Virus genome (UHGV): UHGV-1383708
DNA from: a virus
DNA: 41,056 bases
Direction: 5' to 3' (one strand)
This document shows positions 4,832-27,501 of the stretch, one piece after another. The notes under the pieces are model-generated. The model ran no database searches. It was not told the origin of the DNA and saw only the letters and a program-made list of their open reading frames with translations. Position 1 is the first letter of the stretch. Every line of letters starts with the position of its first letter. The position numbers were made by a program, and so were the translations under genes.

Positions 4832-4935
4832 GTTAAATCTCCAGATAGTCGCAGCACCCGTTGCGCCGCATATCTGGTTATTCTATTACCCAAAAAACCA
4901 TATATGGATAGAAAGACTGTGAATATGAATAGATA

Positions 4936-4950
4936 TTACCTTTCAGGTAA
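4936..4950. promoter_or_regulatory. Operator palindrome TTACC-TTTCA-GGTAA
   Basis: Perfect palindrome between tailspike start (4831) and small gene (5028). Confidence 0.6.
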
Positions 4951-4987
4951 TTTGCAAAACGTGCTGGATAGCAAACAAATTATTTGC

Positions 4988-5007
4988 TACTGTATAAATA
5001 TACAGTT
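4988..5007. promoter_or_regulatory. LexA (SOS) box
   Basis: TACTGTATAAATATACAGTT, CTGT-N8-ACAG with AT-rich core, close to E. coli consensus. Confidence 0.65.
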
Positions 5008-5027
5008 ATTGCATGGAGAAGATTAAG

Positions 5028-5285
5028 ATGCAGCAGTATCACTATCCACTGGAAGAGGGATTTACCGAAAGGATTCACACGCCGGGAGGCGTCAGGTCAC
5101 TGGTGGAGGGATCGCACTTGATGAAATTACTCCGGGATCTCGATAAGGATGGATTTAATGTCGATGGCCCACTTGCCGAACTGACTGCACTGATTAACTA
5201 CGTCACCAGCTCACAGATGTCTATGCAGGATCTGCAAACACATCTCGACTATTGTGCCGAACAATTACGAAAACAAACCAGATAA
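5028..5285 (+). CDS. Small protein homologous to the antirepressor shared C-terminal domain; candidate SOS-inducible antirepressor
   Basis: 86 aa; GGAGA RBS; GGVRSLVEGSHLMKLLRDLDKDGFNVDGPLAELTAL parallels SGVLGLTENSLLMNLLNQLQEDGHDVSGAAAELTTM; LexA box 20 nt upstream. Confidence 0.55.
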   Translation: MQQYHYPLEEGFTERIHTPGGVRSLVEGSHLMKLLRDLDKDGFNVDGPLAELTALINYVTSSQMSMQDLQTHLDYCAEQLRKQTR

Positions 5286-5316
5286 GTTTTGAAATTACCA
5301 ATAGGAGTGCTTATAT

Positions 5317-5331
5317 TTACCTTTTCGGTAA
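5317..5331. promoter_or_regulatory. Operator palindrome TTACC-TTTTC-GGTAA
   Basis: Perfect palindrome right after TTGAAA-N17-TTATAT promoter-like hexamers; nested in larger inverted repeat AGGAGTGC/GCACTCCT. Confidence 0.6.
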
Positions 5332-5425
5332 ATTTACATTGCACTCCTCTTGTGCCATAGTAATCGGGCACTGGCAAAATCCAGTGCCGGGATTGGTCTC
5401 CCGGATTACTACAGAGGCACATATG

Positions 5426-5445
5426 CCGCATAAGCGGTTTTTTTA
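5426..5445 (+). terminator. Intrinsic terminator downstream of small LexA-box gene
   Basis: CCGC-ataa-GCGG hairpin followed by TTTTTTT. Confidence 0.5.
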
Positions 5446-5598
5446 TGTGTAAAGCGCACCTATTCTATGGTGGGCTGTGTGGGGGCACCGAAAGGTGCGC
5501 CGGGTTCCTTTGTAGCCGGTAAGACCAACTCTGCACAGTTCACCACCATCTGATTGGTCTCAGCGGTGGTGATTAACCTAACTACAAAGGTGATCGCT

Positions 5599-6291
5599 AT
5601 GAATACCAAACCTTCCATCTTTTCCTTTGAGTCATCCTGCCAGATCCGTATGTTCATGATTGACGGAGAACCTTGGTTTGTCACCAAAGATGTGTGCAAT
5701 GCTTTGAATATTGATGTTACACAAGCGAGAAAACTTGATAAAAAAGGCTGGAACAAAAAGGGGCTGTATTCAATACAGACCCCTGGTGGAATACAAGAAC
5801 TATCCATCGTTTCAGAATCAGGTCTCTACATCCTTATTCTGCGTTGCAAAGAGGCAATGACTGAGGGAACGAGAGCATTCAGATTTCTTGAATGGGTTAC
5901 AGGTGAGGTTCTTCCTCAGATCCGCCGCACCGGAAGTTACATTAAAAACTCGCTCCCGCAGGAAGAACGCATAAAGATGGTTGCCGACCAGGTAGCCAAC
6001 GCCACAGCATCAGCAGTGATGCAGGCAATGAAGGTAGAGAACAAAACCTACAGCGCCCCACTGAAGCCCGGCTACCGCAGCCTGATTCATTCGCCGTCTG
6101 GTGTTCTCGGCCTGACGGAGAACTCACTGCTGATGAATCTGCTGAACCAGTTACAGGAAGACGGGCACGATGTATCGGGCGCGGCGGCGGAGCTGACCAC
6201 CATGTTCTGCTACATCGTCGGTGTGAGCAAATGCCTGCGTGATATCCAGACGCACGCGGAGTACATCAACGACAAAGCAGGGTTCTTCTGA
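5599..6291 (+). CDS. Bro-N domain antirepressor with shared C-terminal domain
   Basis: 230 aa; N-terminus IRMFMIDGEPWFVTKDVCNALNI typical of Bro-N; last 77 aa near-identical to antirepressor 7543-8481. Confidence 0.7.
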   Translation: MNTKPSIFSFESSCQIRMFMIDGEPWFVTKDVCNALNIDVTQARKLDKKGWNKKGLYSIQTPGGIQELSIVSESGLYILILRCKEAMTEGTRAFRFLEWVTGEVLPQIRRTGSYIKNSLPQEERIKMVADQVANATASAVMQAMKVENKTYSAPLKPGYRSLIHSPSGVLGLTENSLLMNLLNQLQEDGHDVSGAAAELTTMFCYIVGVSKCLRDIQTHAEYINDKAGFF

Positions 6292-22959: not shown

Positions 22960-24635
22960 TGTGATTGCCCACCCTGACCACTAACTGCATTCGCCATAGC
23001 TGACAAAACACTCGGATCCGAAGTTTTAGCTTCGCTTAGCGTCTTGGCACCCTGTGCCGCCGCCATTCCCATCGCCATCATTTGTTGCTGCTGTTGCTGC
23101 TGTGCCCGTTGCTGGCGAGCCTGCTCAACCTGTTCCTGCGGAACAATGACGGTTGGAGACACTCCGGACATATCAGCGAATGCATCGATCGCCTGATCAA
23201 CATTGAGTTTGTCGAGAGCTTCTGGTTTCGCTTGCGCAAGTTGACCAATGAAGTTGACCGTAGACGCCAGACTGGACAGGCCGATAGACTTCTGCGCCTG
23301 AGCCATGACGGAAATGTATTCGACCTTCAGGGGCATACCTTCCATCGCGTCAGGCGGTGGCGGCAGCATGTTTTTACGCACCATCATCGAGAAAGAGCGG
23401 TCAATGAGAGGATTAAGACATTCGTCGTTCAGACGCTCCAGAACCGGCCCCAACATCAGAAGTTTTTCTTCTTTCATTTCGATCACCGCTTCAACAGGCA
23501 TCGAGCGGGTATTGATGTTCTGCAACATCATGAACAGATCGACAAAGTAGGCGCTGTTAATGATTTGACGGGTGTCCTGAATGTCTGCCACCAAATCTGC
23601 TGTACTGGGGTTAACCAGATAAGCAGGCCTGAAACCATCCTGACCAGTAATCTGATCGATATACGTGATGTCGCCAGGAAGAAGGGAGGCACGCTGATTC
23701 TTGAGGGAAGTCGGAGCAACCATCGGCGGATTGGTGGCTTTATCAATCAACTCCGACTTGCGCTTCTGGAGAAGCTGCAATGCCTTAACAGGTCCAAGCG
23801 CCAGCATACCCGGGCATGATGATCCATAAACATCTTCACCGTTAACTTCCCAGCGCGGAGCCATAATTGGAAACTCATCGAATCCGGACTCACGCAACAA
23901 CTTGTCGTTATCGCCACCAACCTCGTAATAAACCGATTTGAATGGCTTGTTCTTGCTATCCAGCTTCGATGTATCGCGGTCAATGTTCGGGTAAACCGAA
24001 TGCATCACTTCAATCCACTTCTCGTAGGTGCCGCTTTCCCACATGCTTTTTACGGATTCGCTGACGTTATTTAGCCCGAACTCCTGAACAAGCTGACGAA
24101 CAGTCATAGAGAACTTGCGAAAACAGGTGTCCACACTGCCACGAGGTGAGTTAGCCAGGTAGTAACTGCCTATCGGGAATGGCATTGTGCGAATGATGTC
24201 CTCGTCATCCTCCAGCACTGCCATTGCACCAGTGCTGTATGTGCCGAGGCTTCCGTATAACTGCGGCAGCGACTGATAGAGATTCGACTTATTGAACATA
24301 TCGTTCATACGGTTCTGCACCGCCTCAAGCCACAACTTAACAGGGCCATAATCCATCATTTCAGGATCTGGCGTAGCCAGGCGAAACCACGGACGCGCGG
24401 GGCTTGTGATGCCTGACATCATGCCGCTGGCGAGAGTGCGCGCCGCCATAGTCCCGGTCGAATCAATAATGCGTGTATTGCGTCGATCGTTACGGTTGAC
24501 CTCAGAAGTCAGAAAGCGGGAACCACGCGGGTTGATGTAATCACTCAACTCGCGCCAGTGCGGCTCGAACGACTGACGCTCGCTTTCAAGTTGTGCGAAC
24601 TGTTTGTTCAATCGCTCTTTAGTTGTTTCCGCCAT
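22956..24635 (-). CDS. Portal protein
   Basis: 559 aa; position directly after terminase large subunit; acidic glutamine-rich C-terminus. Confidence 0.8.
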   Translation of the reverse strand: MAETTKERLNKQFAQLESERQSFEPHWRELSDYINPRGSRFLTSEVNRNDRRNTRIIDSTGTMAARTLASGMMSGITSPARPWFRLATPDPEMMDYGPVKLWLEAVQNRMNDMFNKSNLYQSLPQLYGSLGTYSTGAMAVLEDDEDIIRTMPFPIGSYYLANSPRGSVDTCFRKFSMTVRQLVQEFGLNNVSESVKSMWESGTYEKWIEVMHSVYPNIDRDTSKLDSKNKPFKSVYYEVGGDNDKLLRESGFDEFPIMAPRWEVNGEDVYGSSCPGMLALGPVKALQLLQKRKSELIDKATNPPMVAPTSLKNQRASLLPGDITYIDQITGQDGFRPAYLVNPSTADLVADIQDTRQIINSAYFVDLFMMLQNINTRSMPVEAVIEMKEEKLLMLGPVLERLNDECLNPLIDRSFSMMVRKNMLPPPPDAMEGMPLKVEYISVMAQAQKSIGLSSLASTVNFIGQLAQAKPEALDKLNVDQAIDAFADMSGVSPTVIVPQEQVEQARQQRAQQQQQQQMMAMGMAAAQGAKTLSEAKTSDPSVLSAMANAVSGQGGQSQ

Positions 24636-24649
24636 TTCAATGACTCCGG

Positions 24650-24856
24650 TTACTGACCAAGCAGCGTTTTACCGCTGGTATTAGCGGTTGATGTGTCGCC
24701 CTGAGAACCGGTAAGCAGCGTAGAACTACGACCAGCAGCAGCGCGACGGCGACGAGTTTCTTCGTCGCGGGCATCAACAACGGCGGCATCCTGCTCCTGT
24801 GGTGCTGCCTGAACTTCTGGTGTTGCAGGCACTGATGGTGAGCTACCCATGCACAT
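24650..24856 (-). CDS. Hypothetical small protein (68 aa) between terminase and portal
   Basis: GGAG RBS; ends 15 nt before portal start. Confidence 0.4.
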   Translation of the reverse strand: MCMGSSPSVPATPEVQAAPQEQDAAVVDARDEETRRRRAAAGRSSTLLTGSQGDTSTANTSGKTLLGQ

Positions 24857-24946
24857 ATCAATGACTCCGTACGCAATTAAATTATTACCAATTTAACCAC
24901 ATATGATTTATTTATCGTAGATGGTTGACATTTAATGCACGAATTA

Positions 24947-24961
24947 TTACCCTTCAGGTAA
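24947..24961. promoter_or_regulatory. Operator palindrome TTACC-CTTCA-GGTAA
   Basis: Perfect palindrome 17 nt downstream of a TTGACA hexamer (24925-24930). Confidence 0.55.
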
Positions 24962-25282
24962 GTAAATAGTTCATTCCGGTTATTAACCTGACTGGCTTGT
25001 CGTTAAATTGAACAGGTGGAGTGAGCTTTTATTTTGAGCAGTACGGCGTATGGCACATGCGCCGATAGCGGTCTGGATACGTTTAAGGGGCACCCTCCCT
25101 TGCTCGGGCAAACGAACCAGGTAGCCGGAATGTGCAAGTCGAGCGGTTTTATTCCGCGCACGGGGATTCACCATCCCGGCGATTCGGTGTGACGCCTCGG
25201 AAGAGACGAGGGTGCAACGATGAGAGCATTTATGGAGCCGCGACAAAGTGTGGCGCCTTAACAGGCTAAGTGCTCTCAGCGT

Positions 25283-25359
25283 TGTGGCATTAGCTCAGTT
25301 GGACAGAGCAACCGCCTTCTAAGCGGTTGGTCGCAGGTTCGAATCCTGCATGCCACGCC
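25283..25359 (+). tRNA. tRNA-Arg (anticodon UCU), argU-like
   Basis: 77 nt; 7-bp acceptor stem GTGGCAT/ATGCCAC; anticodon stem ACCGC/GCGGT with loop CTTCTAA; T-loop TTCGAAT; encoded 3' CCA. Confidence 0.85.
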
Positions 25360-25403
25360 AGAATCACGCCTAAGGACCGTGATGCCAGAAGTTCCAGGGG
25401 CTT

Positions 25404-25446
25404 GGCGGTGATGGTTTCCCTTGAAGGACTATCACCGCCCTTTTTA
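25404..25446 (+). terminator. Intrinsic terminator downstream of tRNA-Arg
   Basis: GGCGGTGAT ... ATCACCGCC long hairpin followed by CTTTTT. Confidence 0.55.
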
Positions 25447-25522
25447 CAGCAGGACGCCATTGCGATGACTTCATGCTGTAAACCAGTACAGCCACGGAAG
25501 GCATAACTCATTGCTTCCAGTT

Positions 25523-25546
25523 CGCCCGGTTCGCCGGGCATTTTTT
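25523..25546 (+). terminator. Intrinsic terminator immediately upstream of gene 25564
   Basis: GCCCGG-ttcg-CCGGGC hairpin followed by ATTTTTTT. Confidence 0.6.
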
Positions 25547-25563
25547 TAAGGTGAGATTAGACT

Positions 25564-25935
25564 ATGAGTGACAAAGACATTGAATCTGAAATTCAGGCTA
25601 AAGGTTTAGCCGCGCCGCGCGTTACGCCAGACCATATCGAGAGCATTATTGCTCAGGAGGCATATTTCACAGCAGAAGATGGTGTCTTTGGCGTAGCCAT
25701 AAAAGCGAAACATACTGGCGGAGAGGTAAACTACCAGCCGCACGAATCACTTTCTCTGCTGACGTTCTGCGTTCTGGTGCTGCGCAACGGCTTCACCGTC
25801 ACCGGAGAGAGCGCCTGTGCAAGCCCGGAAAACTTTGATGCGGAAATTGGTCGGAAGATTGCCCGGCAGAATGCTGTAAACAAAATCTGGATGCTTGAAG
25901 GTTACTTGCTGAAGCAGAAGTTAAGCGAGCAATAA
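25564..25935 (+). CDS. Hypothetical protein (123 aa), opposite-strand insert in the late region
   Basis: AAGGTGAG RBS; flanked by terminators on both sides; opposite to surrounding late genes. Confidence 0.55.
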   Translation: MSDKDIESEIQAKGLAAPRVTPDHIESIIAQEAYFTAEDGVFGVAIKAKHTGGEVNYQPHESLSLLTFCVLVLRNGFTVTGESACASPENFDAEIGRKIARQNAVNKIWMLEGYLLKQKLSEQ

Positions 25936-25939
25936 CACC

Positions 25940-25951
25940 GTGACATGTCAC
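25940..25951. repeat. Perfect 12-bp palindrome GTGACATGTCAC (copy 2)
   Basis: Exact; 4 nt upstream of terminator hairpin. Confidence 0.8.
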
Positions 25952-25955
25952 AAAC

Positions 25956-25982
25956 AGCCAGCCGATGAGCTGGCTTTGTTTT
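25956..25982 (+). terminator. Intrinsic terminator after gene 25564-25935
   Basis: AGCCAGC-cgatga-GCTGGCT hairpin then TTGTTTT. Confidence 0.6.
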
Positions 25983-26025
25983 ATCCTCACCAGAGGATAT
26001 CTCCGTCATTATCCCCGCTAACGGA

Positions 26026-27501
26026 TTAAGCATAGGGATCGTAATCTGTAATGGCCTTGCCTTGCTGGTTCTGCTGCCCGGGAATTCGCAGACGCTTAGA
26101 CACAGGGAACGCAAACGTCAGCAGTAGCGCATCGCCTTTACCCGGCGAACGCCCAAGCCGCTCCTTGATATCTTCCTTCGGTTCGATAACGATTTTACCG
26201 TCCACTCGAACTTTGTACTCTGCCGCCGACAGGTCGTCTGCTGTTTCCTGGTCATCCAGCATCCCGCCCAGCCTCAGCCATGTCTTGCATGAGTTGAACA
26301 TCTCCCCACGCTTGTTGAGCATCTGCGGGTCAGTAGACGCGCCACCGAACGGAACAAGTTGCCATGTACGACCCCAGCCGTCACCGATTGACTTCAGACC
26401 AGTTCCGTAACCGAAGTCGATGAACACTGCGTCAGCCTGGTACTGGTCTTCAAAGTCAGCGATACGCTTCGCCATTATCAGATCGTCAGTGGTCTTGTTG
26501 CCAGTCCACAGCACCTTACTGTGCAGCCCCTGCCGCAGGTATATCACAGCGTCATCAACTCCGGAGTATGCCGGGTCAACGCCGATTATCACCGGAGCAT
26601 GTGCAACCTGCGCAGCGGTTACCACCCGTTTCATTGCCTCATCAGTAAGACCGGTAGGGATAAACTGCAATTCAGATGCATCAGGGAATATGCCGCGCAC
26701 ACGGATTTTAACGAAGTCGCTGTCTTCCCCGTAGTCATCAACCCATTTCTGCAACTGCTGTTTGTTAGTACCTTCCACCGTCCGGCTGTCAATCTGCGCA
26801 GTTTTCCAGCGGTGTTTGTATTTGCGGAAACATTCGCGAAAACGCCCGGTATTACGTGTAGGGTTTCCGAACGCCACCCAGATAATCTCAGTGTCTTCGT
26901 CCGTAAGCGCACCCTCAGCAACTTCCCACACCAGATCCGCAATGTTCGACGCTTCATCGAATACCACGATGATGCGTTTGCGCTCGTTGTGTAGTCCGGC
27001 GAATGCCTCAGTGTTGTGCTCAGACCAGGGGATTGCGTCAGCTCGCCACCGCTTGTCGTGCCCAGGATCATTGCTGTACATCGCAGTAGCGGTACAGGTA
27101 AACCAGTCTTTCGTGATAGCAAGGTTCGACCACTTGATAATTTCCGGCCAGGTCTTCGTTCGTAGCTGGTTGTCGGTGTTGGCGGTCACCACGACCTTAC
27201 AATCCTCGCAAGTGGACATGCCCCAGTTGATCAGCATTGAGATGAATGCGGATTTACCAATACCGTGACCAGAAGCGCGTGCCAGCATAAGCGGCTGATA
27301 GCGCGTCTCTGGATTCTGCAGGTGATCACGTATCTCTCGGAACGCATCAGCCTGCCACTGACGTGGGCCGGTAGCATGTGCCAGTTCAGTCCCCTCTTCC
27401 CCCCACGGGAACGCATAGAGGGCATAGCCAAGCGGATCGTGAGTGAACCCTGCAATATCCTCGATCAACTGCTCTTCAGGAGATAACGCTGTATCTGTCA
27501 C
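26026..27501 (-). CDS. Terminase large subunit
   Basis: 491 aa; ATPase region then nuclease region (VIIGVDPAYSG...); follows terS. Confidence 0.85.
   Translation of the reverse strand: MTDTALSPEEQLIEDIAGFTHDPLGYALYAFPWGEEGTELAHATGPRQWQADAFREIRDHLQNPETRYQPLMLARASGHGIGKSAFISMLINWGMSTCEDCKVVVTANTDNQLRTKTWPEIIKWSNLAITKDWFTCTATAMYSNDPGHDKRWRADAIPWSEHNTEAFAGLHNERKRIIVVFDEASNIADLVWEVAEGALTDEDTEIIWVAFGNPTRNTGRFRECFRKYKHRWKTAQIDSRTVEGTNKQQLQKWVDDYGEDSDFVKIRVRGIFPDASELQFIPTGLTDEAMKRVVTAAQVAHAPVIIGVDPAYSGVDDAVIYLRQGLHSKVLWTGNKTTDDLIMAKRIADFEDQYQADAVFIDFGYGTGLKSIGDGWGRTWQLVPFGGASTDPQMLNKRGEMFNSCKTWLRLGGMLDDQETADDLSAAEYKVRVDGKIVIEPKEDIKERLGRSPGKGDALLLTFAFPVSKRLRIPGQQNQQGKAITDYDPYA

Follow-up and report, generated by a model that had tools for sequence, protein, structure and literature searches.

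A predicted cyclic-dinucleotide sponge gene of the Acb4 family in a terminator-bordered, exchangeable slot of a phiV10-like prophage

The stretch of DNA analysed here, called the window throughout, comprises 41,056 nucleotides of the virus genome UHGV-1383708 and, judged from its sequence, is a phiV10/epsilon15-like (Uetakevirus) prophage. Its terminase and portal genes are encoded on the minus strand, and the 1.17-kb gap between the gene for TerL and a small conserved gene contains all plus-strand features of the locus (Table 1), including an open reading frame (ORF) at 25564-25935 that is the subject of this report. An earlier sequence-only reading had placed this ORF, of 123 amino acids, on the plus strand between terminase and tRNA, and could assign it to no family. 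The ORF is borne out here, on the strand opposite to TerS, TerL, the small gene and the portal gene. From profile matches and a structural model, the gene is a member of a published phage counter-defence family, Acb4 (anti-CBASS 4, where CBASS stands for cyclic oligonucleotide-based antiphage signalling system), and the published family list already includes an almost identical orthologue. The surrounding DNA is also familiar: 25200-26100 is 99.7% identical to Escherichia phage phiV10 and to the O157 typing phages 9 and 10, and 25404-25990 is 100% identical to a prophage of E. coli YZLc1-3. Part of a 587-bp query, running from the terminator T1 to the terminator T3, occurs in 775 of 5,426 complete E. 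coli genomes, with at least 80% of the query present in 143.

The protein matches PF13876 (Phage_gp49_66; ‘N4 Gp49 / Sf6 gene 66’) over the entire profile (1-82 of 82), with an E-value of 2.4e-35 and 121.3 bits against a cut-off of 27, so that the earlier statement of no assignable family no longer holds. PHROG 322 is matched as well, and identical copies of the protein are named ‘Gp49 family protein’ by PGAP; scans of the protein with PADLOC and NCBIfam returned no match. Chang et al. (bioRxiv 10.1101/2024.12.30.630793) showed PF13876 to be the Acb4 family. In that study the 96-residue Acb4 of phage SPO1 was found to be a tetramer in which four 3'3'-cGAMP molecules are sequestered. All eight further homologues that were purified bound 3'3'-cGAMP and none of the eight bound c-di-GMP, homologues from phages of Gram-negative hosts bound 3'3'-c-di-AMP as well, and ligand specificities differed among the characterised proteins; the eight homologues that were modelled were all predicted to be tetramers. 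Table S3 of the same preprint includes Q287B5 of phiV10, together with proteins of epsilon15, Sf6 (gene 66) and N4 (gp49). The window protein differs from Q287B5 by a single residue (A105 against V105).

Against the sequences in the PDB, a phmmer search with the window protein recovered only SPO1 Acb4 (9e4w, E 0.0068), and a profile of 35 homologues aligned to SPO1 Acb4 in hhalign with 95.1% probability (E 3e-8). Identity is 40% over the 43 aligned columns, which form a beta2-beta3-loop-alpha4 core, and ~22% over the structure alignment. Among relatives with known biochemistry, N4 Acb4 is the closest (46% identity over 107 residues, E 6e-30); it binds c-di-AMP at 111 nM and, when expressed alone, triggers the sponge-sensing system PanDA (bioRxiv 10.64898/2026.08.10.743972). 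N4 Acb4 is gp49, the namesake of the Pfam family, and Bas69 Acb4 is likewise related. N4 also infects E. coli; it is, however, a schitovirus of virulent lifestyle; its protein differs in the central segment and carries a Cys-rich tail at the C-terminus that the window protein lacks, and the genomic setting and regulation of its acb4 are unrelated to those of the window gene.

The monomer fold expected of the family, with N-terminal helices, three antiparallel beta-strands and long C-terminal helices, is predicted by AlphaFold2 (predicted local distance difference test score 84, predicted template modelling score 0.74), with strands at 29-36, 66-73 and 78-84 and a helix at 93-122. When this model was compared with the PDB using Foldseek, the top 13 matches were exclusively 9e4w chains, at probability 1.0 and target-normalised template modelling scores of 0.62-0.71; the next match had an E-value of 0.047 and a probability of 0.30. 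SPO1 Acb4 (PDB 9E4W) and the window protein have in common the Pfam family, a three-beta-strand core followed by long C-terminal helices, and the conserved ENF(N/D)xEIGR ligand loop. At 123 rather than 96 residues, the window protein differs in an extra N-terminal helix and in an insertion of ~29 residues between beta1 and beta2, mostly hypervariable. At the level of sequence and model, these comparisons establish membership of the family and the fold.

By analogy with the SPO1 and N4 proteins, the product would most likely form a homotetramer, the subunit-interface pockets of which would bind and sequester cyclic dinucleotides (such as 3'3'-cGAMP and, as in phages of Gram-negative hosts, 3'3'-c-di-AMP), so that CBASS effectors would stay inactive during phage replication. 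The gene is thus a recognisable and fairly ordinary counter-defence gene, not an unknown lysogen factor; the earlier suggestion of a lysogen fitness or defence factor was right to place the product in the conflict between phage and host defence, and has to give way as to the side that is served, since a sponge of the Acb4 family would serve the phage.

A quite different role, as an RNA-binding, dsRBD-like protein or a virion or assembly accessory protein situated between terminase and portal because it acts in packaging, is extremely improbable. Strong homology to a virion or assembly protein, which the sequence-only reading had named as a finding that would count against it, did not emerge. 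The only significant structural matches were Acb4 chains. The gene lies on the strand opposite to the late genes, its homologues in Sf6 and N4 occupy unrelated genome positions, and it is absent or replaced in phiv142-3, PAS61, TL-2011b and SPN1S, the structural modules of which are otherwise collinear. Because acb4 is missing from these four phages, it is dispensable for assembly.

The variability of the position became clear from aligning the TerL-to-portal gaps of relatives, individual loci also being read. The gap contains a slot with a constant left border, formed by the terminator T2, its U-tract, the Shine-Dalgarno sequence and the ATG, and a constant right border, formed by the GTGACATGTCAC palindrome and the terminator T3, while the content between them varies. 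acb4 is the cargo in phiV10, epsilon15, ZX5 (as a variant allele) and Kp4865-1, whereas the same position is taken by a 140-residue phrog_4846 protein in PAS61, a 115-residue phrog_3163 protein in TL-2011b, a lipoprotein bearing the annotation ‘protease’ in SPN1S, and only an 8-codon ORF (MKYEFDGF) in phiv142-3. TL-2011b is 99.7% identical to the window up to 25547, the last U of T2, and unrelated beyond it. Since T2 is kept with other cargo or none, and TL-2011b switches at exactly this position, the terminators are part of the slot rather than of acb4. This agrees with the situation of the homologues in Sf6 (gene 66), Huey and the P22-like and lambdoid Shiga toxin (Stx) phages, which lie in the late operon after the lysis cassette, in Sf6 and the P22-like and Stx phages on the same strand as their neighbours, and have no plus-strand terminators on either side. 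The palindrome is kept, with at most one change, 3' of different cargos in PAS61, SPN1S, phiv142-3 and VB_ST_E15, and might serve in recombination or in the binding of a protein. Among the alternative cargos there is no known anti-defence protein: phrog_4846 and phrog_3163 are without known function, the phrog_3163 protein having only a bactofilin match at E 0.29. As no function can be assigned to them, the position is not called a dedicated anti-defence slot here.

An 8-codon mini-ORF of the form MK(D/Y)EFD(R/G)F follows acb4 in an epsilon15-type phage, overlapping it through an ATGA stop/start. It is deleted in the window (25933-25940), is joined to the end of acb4 by a 1-nt insertion in VB_ST_E15 (retrieved locus L006, ~2015-2040), and in phiv142-3 lies at ~1830-1860 of retrieved locus L004.

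Within the slot, the DNA of the gene itself forms a mosaic when Uetakeviruses, P22-like phages and Stx phages are compared. Sf6, Huey and IME10 have only 25757-25928 in common with the window, at 92-94% nucleotide identity, the common region in the Stx and ASO78B phages extends from ~25612-25643 onward, and the ZX5 allele is identical at both ends and differs in the middle. The 92-94% identity of 25757-25928 in Sf6/P22-like and lambdoid Stx relatives indicates that acb4 is exchanged among these temperate phages. At the protein level, enterobacterial homologues are conserved at residues 1-40 and 64-123 and hypervariable, in both sequence and length, at ~41-63 (codons 25684-25752). This hypervariable stretch may determine ligand specificity, or may form a surface exposed to arms-race selection. 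In the P22-like phage Huey, the Acb4-family gene is found close downstream of a Tad2-like gene (PF11195), both of them following the lysis cassette and separated by one small ORF (retrieved locus L002, 1564-2679). The ‘anti-CRISPR’ labels that these Huey genes carry were rejected as evidence of anti-CRISPR activity, as Pfam finds them Tad2-like and Acb4-family, and the label is regarded as a generic anti-defence tag.

The borders of the slot bear directly on how its cargo would be expressed. A terminator upstream of the gene had been noted before, at about 20 nt from the ribosome-binding site; such a terminator exists as T2, although its U-tract ends at 25547, within 1-2 nt of the Shine-Dalgarno sequence, which it abuts, and 16 nt before the ATG, and a second one, T1, which directly follows the tRNA, had been missed. 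The T2 stem is of six base pairs, all GC, closed by a UUCG loop, and reads GCCCAC-UUCG-GUGGGC in epsilon15, SPN1S and VB_ST_E15, two double changes that keep the pairing; in the epsilon15 record it is annotated as a rho-independent terminator. The downstream terminator that had also been proposed is present as T3 and is shared with the convergent terminase operon: it lies between acb4 on the plus strand and TerL on the minus strand, is annotated on the terminase strand in the phiV10 record, and is probably bidirectional. On the minus strand, T1 and T2 have no U-tract, and T2 would work in the plus direction only.

The proximity of T2 to the start codon had been taken to suggest attenuator-type control, an idea that inspection of the 127-nt leader (25440-25566) does not support. 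No pairing that would compete with T2 was found there or in the epsilon15 equivalent, the minimum-energy and centroid folds of the leader both contain T2, in the window phage as in epsilon15, there is neither a leader ORF nor a riboswitch match in Rfam, and T2 is kept with other cargo. The small hairpin between T1 and T2 is conserved, with a compensating pair of changes in ZX5 (GGGAGGCA...UGCCUCC); PAS61 lacks it, together with 4 nt 5' and 5 nt 3' of it (matching window 25492-25523), and has T2 intact. A further candidate, an independent small RNA at 25448-25547 with three hairpins and a U7 tail, was rejected, there being no promoter in or after T1.

Table 1. Features of the acb4 locus, other elements of the window discussed in the text, and copies of the leader RNA in retrieved loci (positions of the latter are those of the locus)
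Feature	Position	Strand	Details
acb4-family gene, phiV10p03 orthologue	25564-25935	+	123 amino acids; ATG start; antisense between terminase and portal genes
TerS	28172-27498	-	PF03592
TerL	27501-26026	-	
Small conserved gene	24856-24650	-	
Portal	24635-22956	-	PF12236, E 4e-187
Candidate early promoter P(+)	24925-24953	+	TTGACA (24925-24930), 17-nt spacer, TACCCT (24948-24953); weight-matrix score 11.1; predicted start ~24960
Putative phage-repressor operator	24946-24962		ATTACCCTTCAGGTAAG; overlaps the -10 hexamer and predicted start of P(+)
Structured leader RNA	25037-25218	+	~180 nt; non-coding, GC-rich; directly upstream of tRNA-Arg
tRNA-Arg, anticodon UCU	25284-25360	+	ARAGORN; Rfam RF00005, 73.3 bits
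T1, intrinsic terminator	25404-25447	+	14-bp stem (25404-25439), then CUUUUUAC; -22.8 kcal/mol, z -2.5; directly 3' of tRNA-Arg
CTGT-N8-ACAG match	25476-25491		CTGTAAACCAGTACAG; scored as 25474-25493, 10.5 bits
Small conserved hairpin	25496-25518	+	GGAAGGCA...UGCUUCC; between T1 and T2; in the centroid fold
T2, intrinsic terminator	25524-25547	+	GCCCGG-UUCG-CCGGGC (25524-25539), A and U7 (25540-25547); -12.7 kcal/mol
Shine-Dalgarno sequence	25548-25555	+	AAGGTGAG; 8 nt before ATG; kept in relatives regardless of cargo
Perfect 12-bp palindrome	25940-25951		GTGACATGTCAC; right border of the cargo slot
T3, terminator	25956-25985	both	Plus-strand hairpin 25956-25975, tail UUGUUUUAUC, -13.5 kcal/mol; minus strand -15.0 kcal/mol, tail GUUUGUG
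Near-consensus SOS box	4988-5007		TACTGTATAAATATACAGTT; 27.8 bits
Leader RNA copy, P1	L010 1495-1682		
Leader RNA copy, cdtI	L011 1495-1675		
Leader RNA copy, Ayreon	L017 2495-2675		
Leader RNA copy, SPN1S (Uetakevirus)	L012 924-1093		
Leader RNA copy, Kp4865-1 (Uetakevirus)	L013 861-1024		

Existing annotation of this region is uneven. The minus-strand ORF phiV10p04 (25290-25541), which overlaps the tRNA-Arg, T1 and T2 and belongs to no family, is almost certainly spurious, and its equivalents in the TL-2011b and ZX5 records are probably spurious too. The tRNA feature is missing from the original phiV10 record, and in that of phiv142-3 (retrieved locus L004, 1591-1659) it is placed on the wrong strand, ARAGORN and Rfam both giving the plus strand.

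A LexA-like site had been proposed between T1 and T2. The CTGT-N8-ACAG core is present at 25476-25491; scored with a LexA matrix built from literature SOS boxes of E. coli (training minimum 13.0 bits, median 20.7), it remains at 10.5 bits, below the weakest of those boxes. Three such cores occur in the window against 0.43 expected. The right half-site of this one is lost in epsilon15, SPN1S and VB_ST_E15, where its flanks are conserved. Because of the low score, the lack of conservation of the half-site and the absence of a promoter nearby, it is not regarded as a LexA site, and is probably nothing more than a small hairpin or a match by chance. A near-consensus SOS box is found elsewhere, ~37 nt after a perfect repressor operator (4935-4951) and just upstream of an ORF at 5013-5285 and of the ORF of a Bro-N antirepressor (5554-6291). 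From its sequence, 4935-6291 looks like an antirepressor module under LexA and repressor control, and like the real SOS input of the prophage.

A consensus promoter scan of 24600-26400 found none, and the best score between T1 and the ATG with a position weight matrix for sigma-70-like promoters was 5.8. With the same matrix, the candidate promoter P(+), upstream of the leader RNA, has the top plus-strand score in 24600-26100, at a level of at least 10 that only 12 positions in the whole window reach, and it is kept as TTGACA-17-TACCTT in epsilon15-type phages. The putative operator that overlaps it corresponds in epsilon15 to a homologous palindrome, ATTACCTTTTAGGTAAT, which the record describes as ‘repressor, lysogeny’ and beside which lies an integration host factor site. 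Allowing up to two mismatches, ATTACC-N5-GGTAAT occurs 16 times in the window against 1.4 expected, a count reached by none of 100 shuffles, for example at 4935, 6376, 24946, 28093, 28111, 32604, 32666, 34997, 35709 and 35771. These operator-like sites include a cluster around a helix-turn-helix repressor gene (35068-35652), with two others inside the 5' end of the TerS gene, and their scatter resembles the dispersed C1 operators of P1.

Together these elements suggest a single unit, in which P(+) with its operator is followed by the leader RNA, tRNA-Arg, T1, T2, acb4 and T3. The slot would have no promoter of its own; P(+), ~640 nt upstream, would drive the leader RNA and the tRNA-Arg and its transcripts would then meet T1 and T2. 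In the lysogen acb4 would be silent, expression from the prophage being argued against by the overlap of the sole strong upstream promoter with a repressor operator. After infection or induction, acb4 would be expressed from transcripts extending past T1 and T2, through leakage or some antitermination mechanism. Lytic read-through expression and silence in the lysogen are what we infer from this arrangement in the DNA; the only paper found on Uetakevirus transcripts, that on ZX5, is without data on the acb4 locus. A moderate promoter-like match on the minus strand, TTCAAT-17-TCTAAT (25584-25556, score 8.2), falls inside the acb4 5' end, some of it in cargo-specific DNA, and faces the tRNA and the portal gene in antisense direction.

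The layout had been described before as moron-like. A moron, in the definition of Juhala and Hendrix, is reportedly a gene added between conserved genes of lambdoid phages and equipped with a promoter and a terminator of its own. acb4 is likewise an extra and variable gene between conserved ones, with a terminator downstream, and to this extent the description stands; unlike a moron, it has no detectable promoter, T2, the Shine-Dalgarno sequence, the ATG and T3 belong to the slot, and expression in the prophage is predicted to be off. An autonomous, prophage-expressed moron, with T2 as attenuator, LexA control at 25476-25491 and a product for lysogen fitness or defence, is very unlikely. Such a moron would fit the presence and absence of the gene among collinear relatives, the terminator on either side and the CTGT-N8-ACAG core. 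Against it are the best promoter score between T1 and the ATG (5.8, compared with 11.1 for P(+)), the lack of any structure competing with T2, the position of the LexA-like core below all boxes used and its poor conservation, the identity of the family as a phage counter-defence sponge, and the operator across the sole strong upstream promoter.

The protein could also be the same sponge expressed in another way, from an activator-dependent or non-sigma-70 promoter in the conserved spacer 25440-25523 or overlapping T2, with T1 and T2 serving mainly to insulate the slot from the tRNA transcript. High expression is to be expected of a sponge, the phage has genes for several putative regulators of transcription (PerC-like, AlpA-like and the p55 regulator), and 25448-25491 is kept even in Salmonella epsilon15-type phages, in which the sequence further upstream diverges. 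Nevertheless, this arrangement appears quite unlikely, as all -10/-35 combinations score 5.8 or less, and as the T2 U-tract abuts the Shine-Dalgarno sequence, so that transcripts starting upstream would still meet T2 and there is no room for a start downstream of it. PAS61, moreover, lacks the equivalent of 25492-25523 and yet keeps T2, the Shine-Dalgarno sequence and a cargo gene.

The reading that we consider likely is a joint one: acb4 would encode a cyclic-dinucleotide sponge of the Acb4 family, carried in a swappable slot, silent in the lysogen and expressed by read-through in lytic growth. Several observations weigh against it, and the first concern the ligand. The contact residues of SPO1 Acb4 given by Chang et al. 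(K36, F48, E49, V56, Y57, F62, N63, I66, T70, K81 and L89) were compared in the hhalign register, with K36, K81 and L89 lying outside the aligned block. Only three of the 11 are identical, F48, F62 and I66, which make stacking or hydrophobic contacts and correspond to F77, F91 and I95. The polar contacts E49, Y57 and T70 are replaced by T78, A86 and I99, and K36 and K81 by L65 and M110; the counterparts of V56 and N63 are C85 and D92. With the polar contact residues replaced, ligand specificity is not readable from the sequence. In SPO1, K36 sits in a tight turn and contacts the guanine base (bioRxiv 10.1101/2024.12.30.630793), and it is at this beta1-beta2 turn that the window protein has the ~29-residue insertion containing the hypervariable segment ~41-63. 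For the phiV10-type subfamily, the sponge function is a prediction from sequence, model and analogy. A sponge, further, needs to be abundant, yet two intrinsic terminators precede the gene and it has no promoter of its own. Lastly, epsilon15 keeps T2 and acb4 without the tRNA and with only the first hairpin of the leader RNA; having lost most of this RNA, it indicates that the leader RNA is not strictly required for acb4 expression.

The leader RNA is of interest beyond this locus. The segment 24958-25283 folds better than 100 of 100 shuffles (z -2.9), and the RNA recurs at ~80% identity in several phage groups, with one copy per genome; a second copy was not found in the window. In P1 and P7 the copies start 8 nt after trnI and precede ban (in P1, the ban operon), and in cdtI, Ayreon and Stx2c lambdoid phages they lie just after the cI terminator and an annotated promoter, in a PL-proximal position. 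An invariant 22-mer of the RNA is present in at least 120 IMG/VR contigs, and in 102 distinct contexts a strong promoter stands at a fixed distance upstream (TTGACA-17-TACCYT, TTGACA-16-CATAAT or TTGCAT-17-TATCTT). The consensus structure has 45 pairs; the share of paired cells in it is 96.7%, as against 33-38% in slid controls. Seven pairs are changed on both sides, concentrated in two hairpins, and the long-range helices are uninformative because they are invariant.

Situated just downstream of repressor-controlled early promoters and upstream of terminators, the RNA recalls in its position the put RNA of HK022 and the putL-like RNA of HK639; the copies of the cdtI/Ayreon type occupy the PL-proximal position held by putL in HK022 and HK639. 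At ~180 nt it is longer than put (~70 nt) and the HK639 RNA (126 nt), blastn comparisons with the HK639 putL-like RNA and the HK022 early region were negative, and a covariance model built from it (R1) had no match at E<=10 in either the HK639 genome or the early region of HK022. The likeness to put RNAs is thus one of position, not of family membership. Rfam has no match to the leader RNA even at E<=10, which says little about put-type elements, as the annotated HK639 putL-like RNA is not matched either. With Pfam, no N-like antiterminator gene was recognised after the leader RNA in Ayreon or cdtI, which is weak negative evidence. The RNA may function as a leader, in processing or in antitermination.

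Combining the slot with this RNA leads to a tentative proposal, which on balance is unlikely: that Uetakeviruses carry a fixed ‘expression dock’ for swapped cargo, be it for counter-defence or another accessory role, expressed only in lytic growth from a repressor-controlled early promoter, and that the ~180-nt leader RNA of that promoter represents a new class of cis-acting processive antiterminator, or another leader or processing element, that allows T1 and T2 to be passed. The leader RNA is uncatalogued and, with the cargo dock, is the sole point at which this locus goes beyond what is known.

For the phages themselves, the immediate consequence is that an annotation can be corrected: what is called a ‘hypothetical protein’, encoded between the genes for terminase and portal of phiV10-type prophages, becomes a predicted cyclic-dinucleotide sponge. 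Judged by the regulatory layout, cargo of this slot would be expressed during lytic growth but be off in the lysogen, while the widespread leader RNA, as an element without an Rfam family, is the only part able to open a new question. The predicted sponge could allow escape from CBASS, yet could at the same time expose phages to sponge-sensing systems such as PanDA, an effect in both directions that would bear on host range, both for the O157 typing phages and for phage-derived tools based on phiV10.

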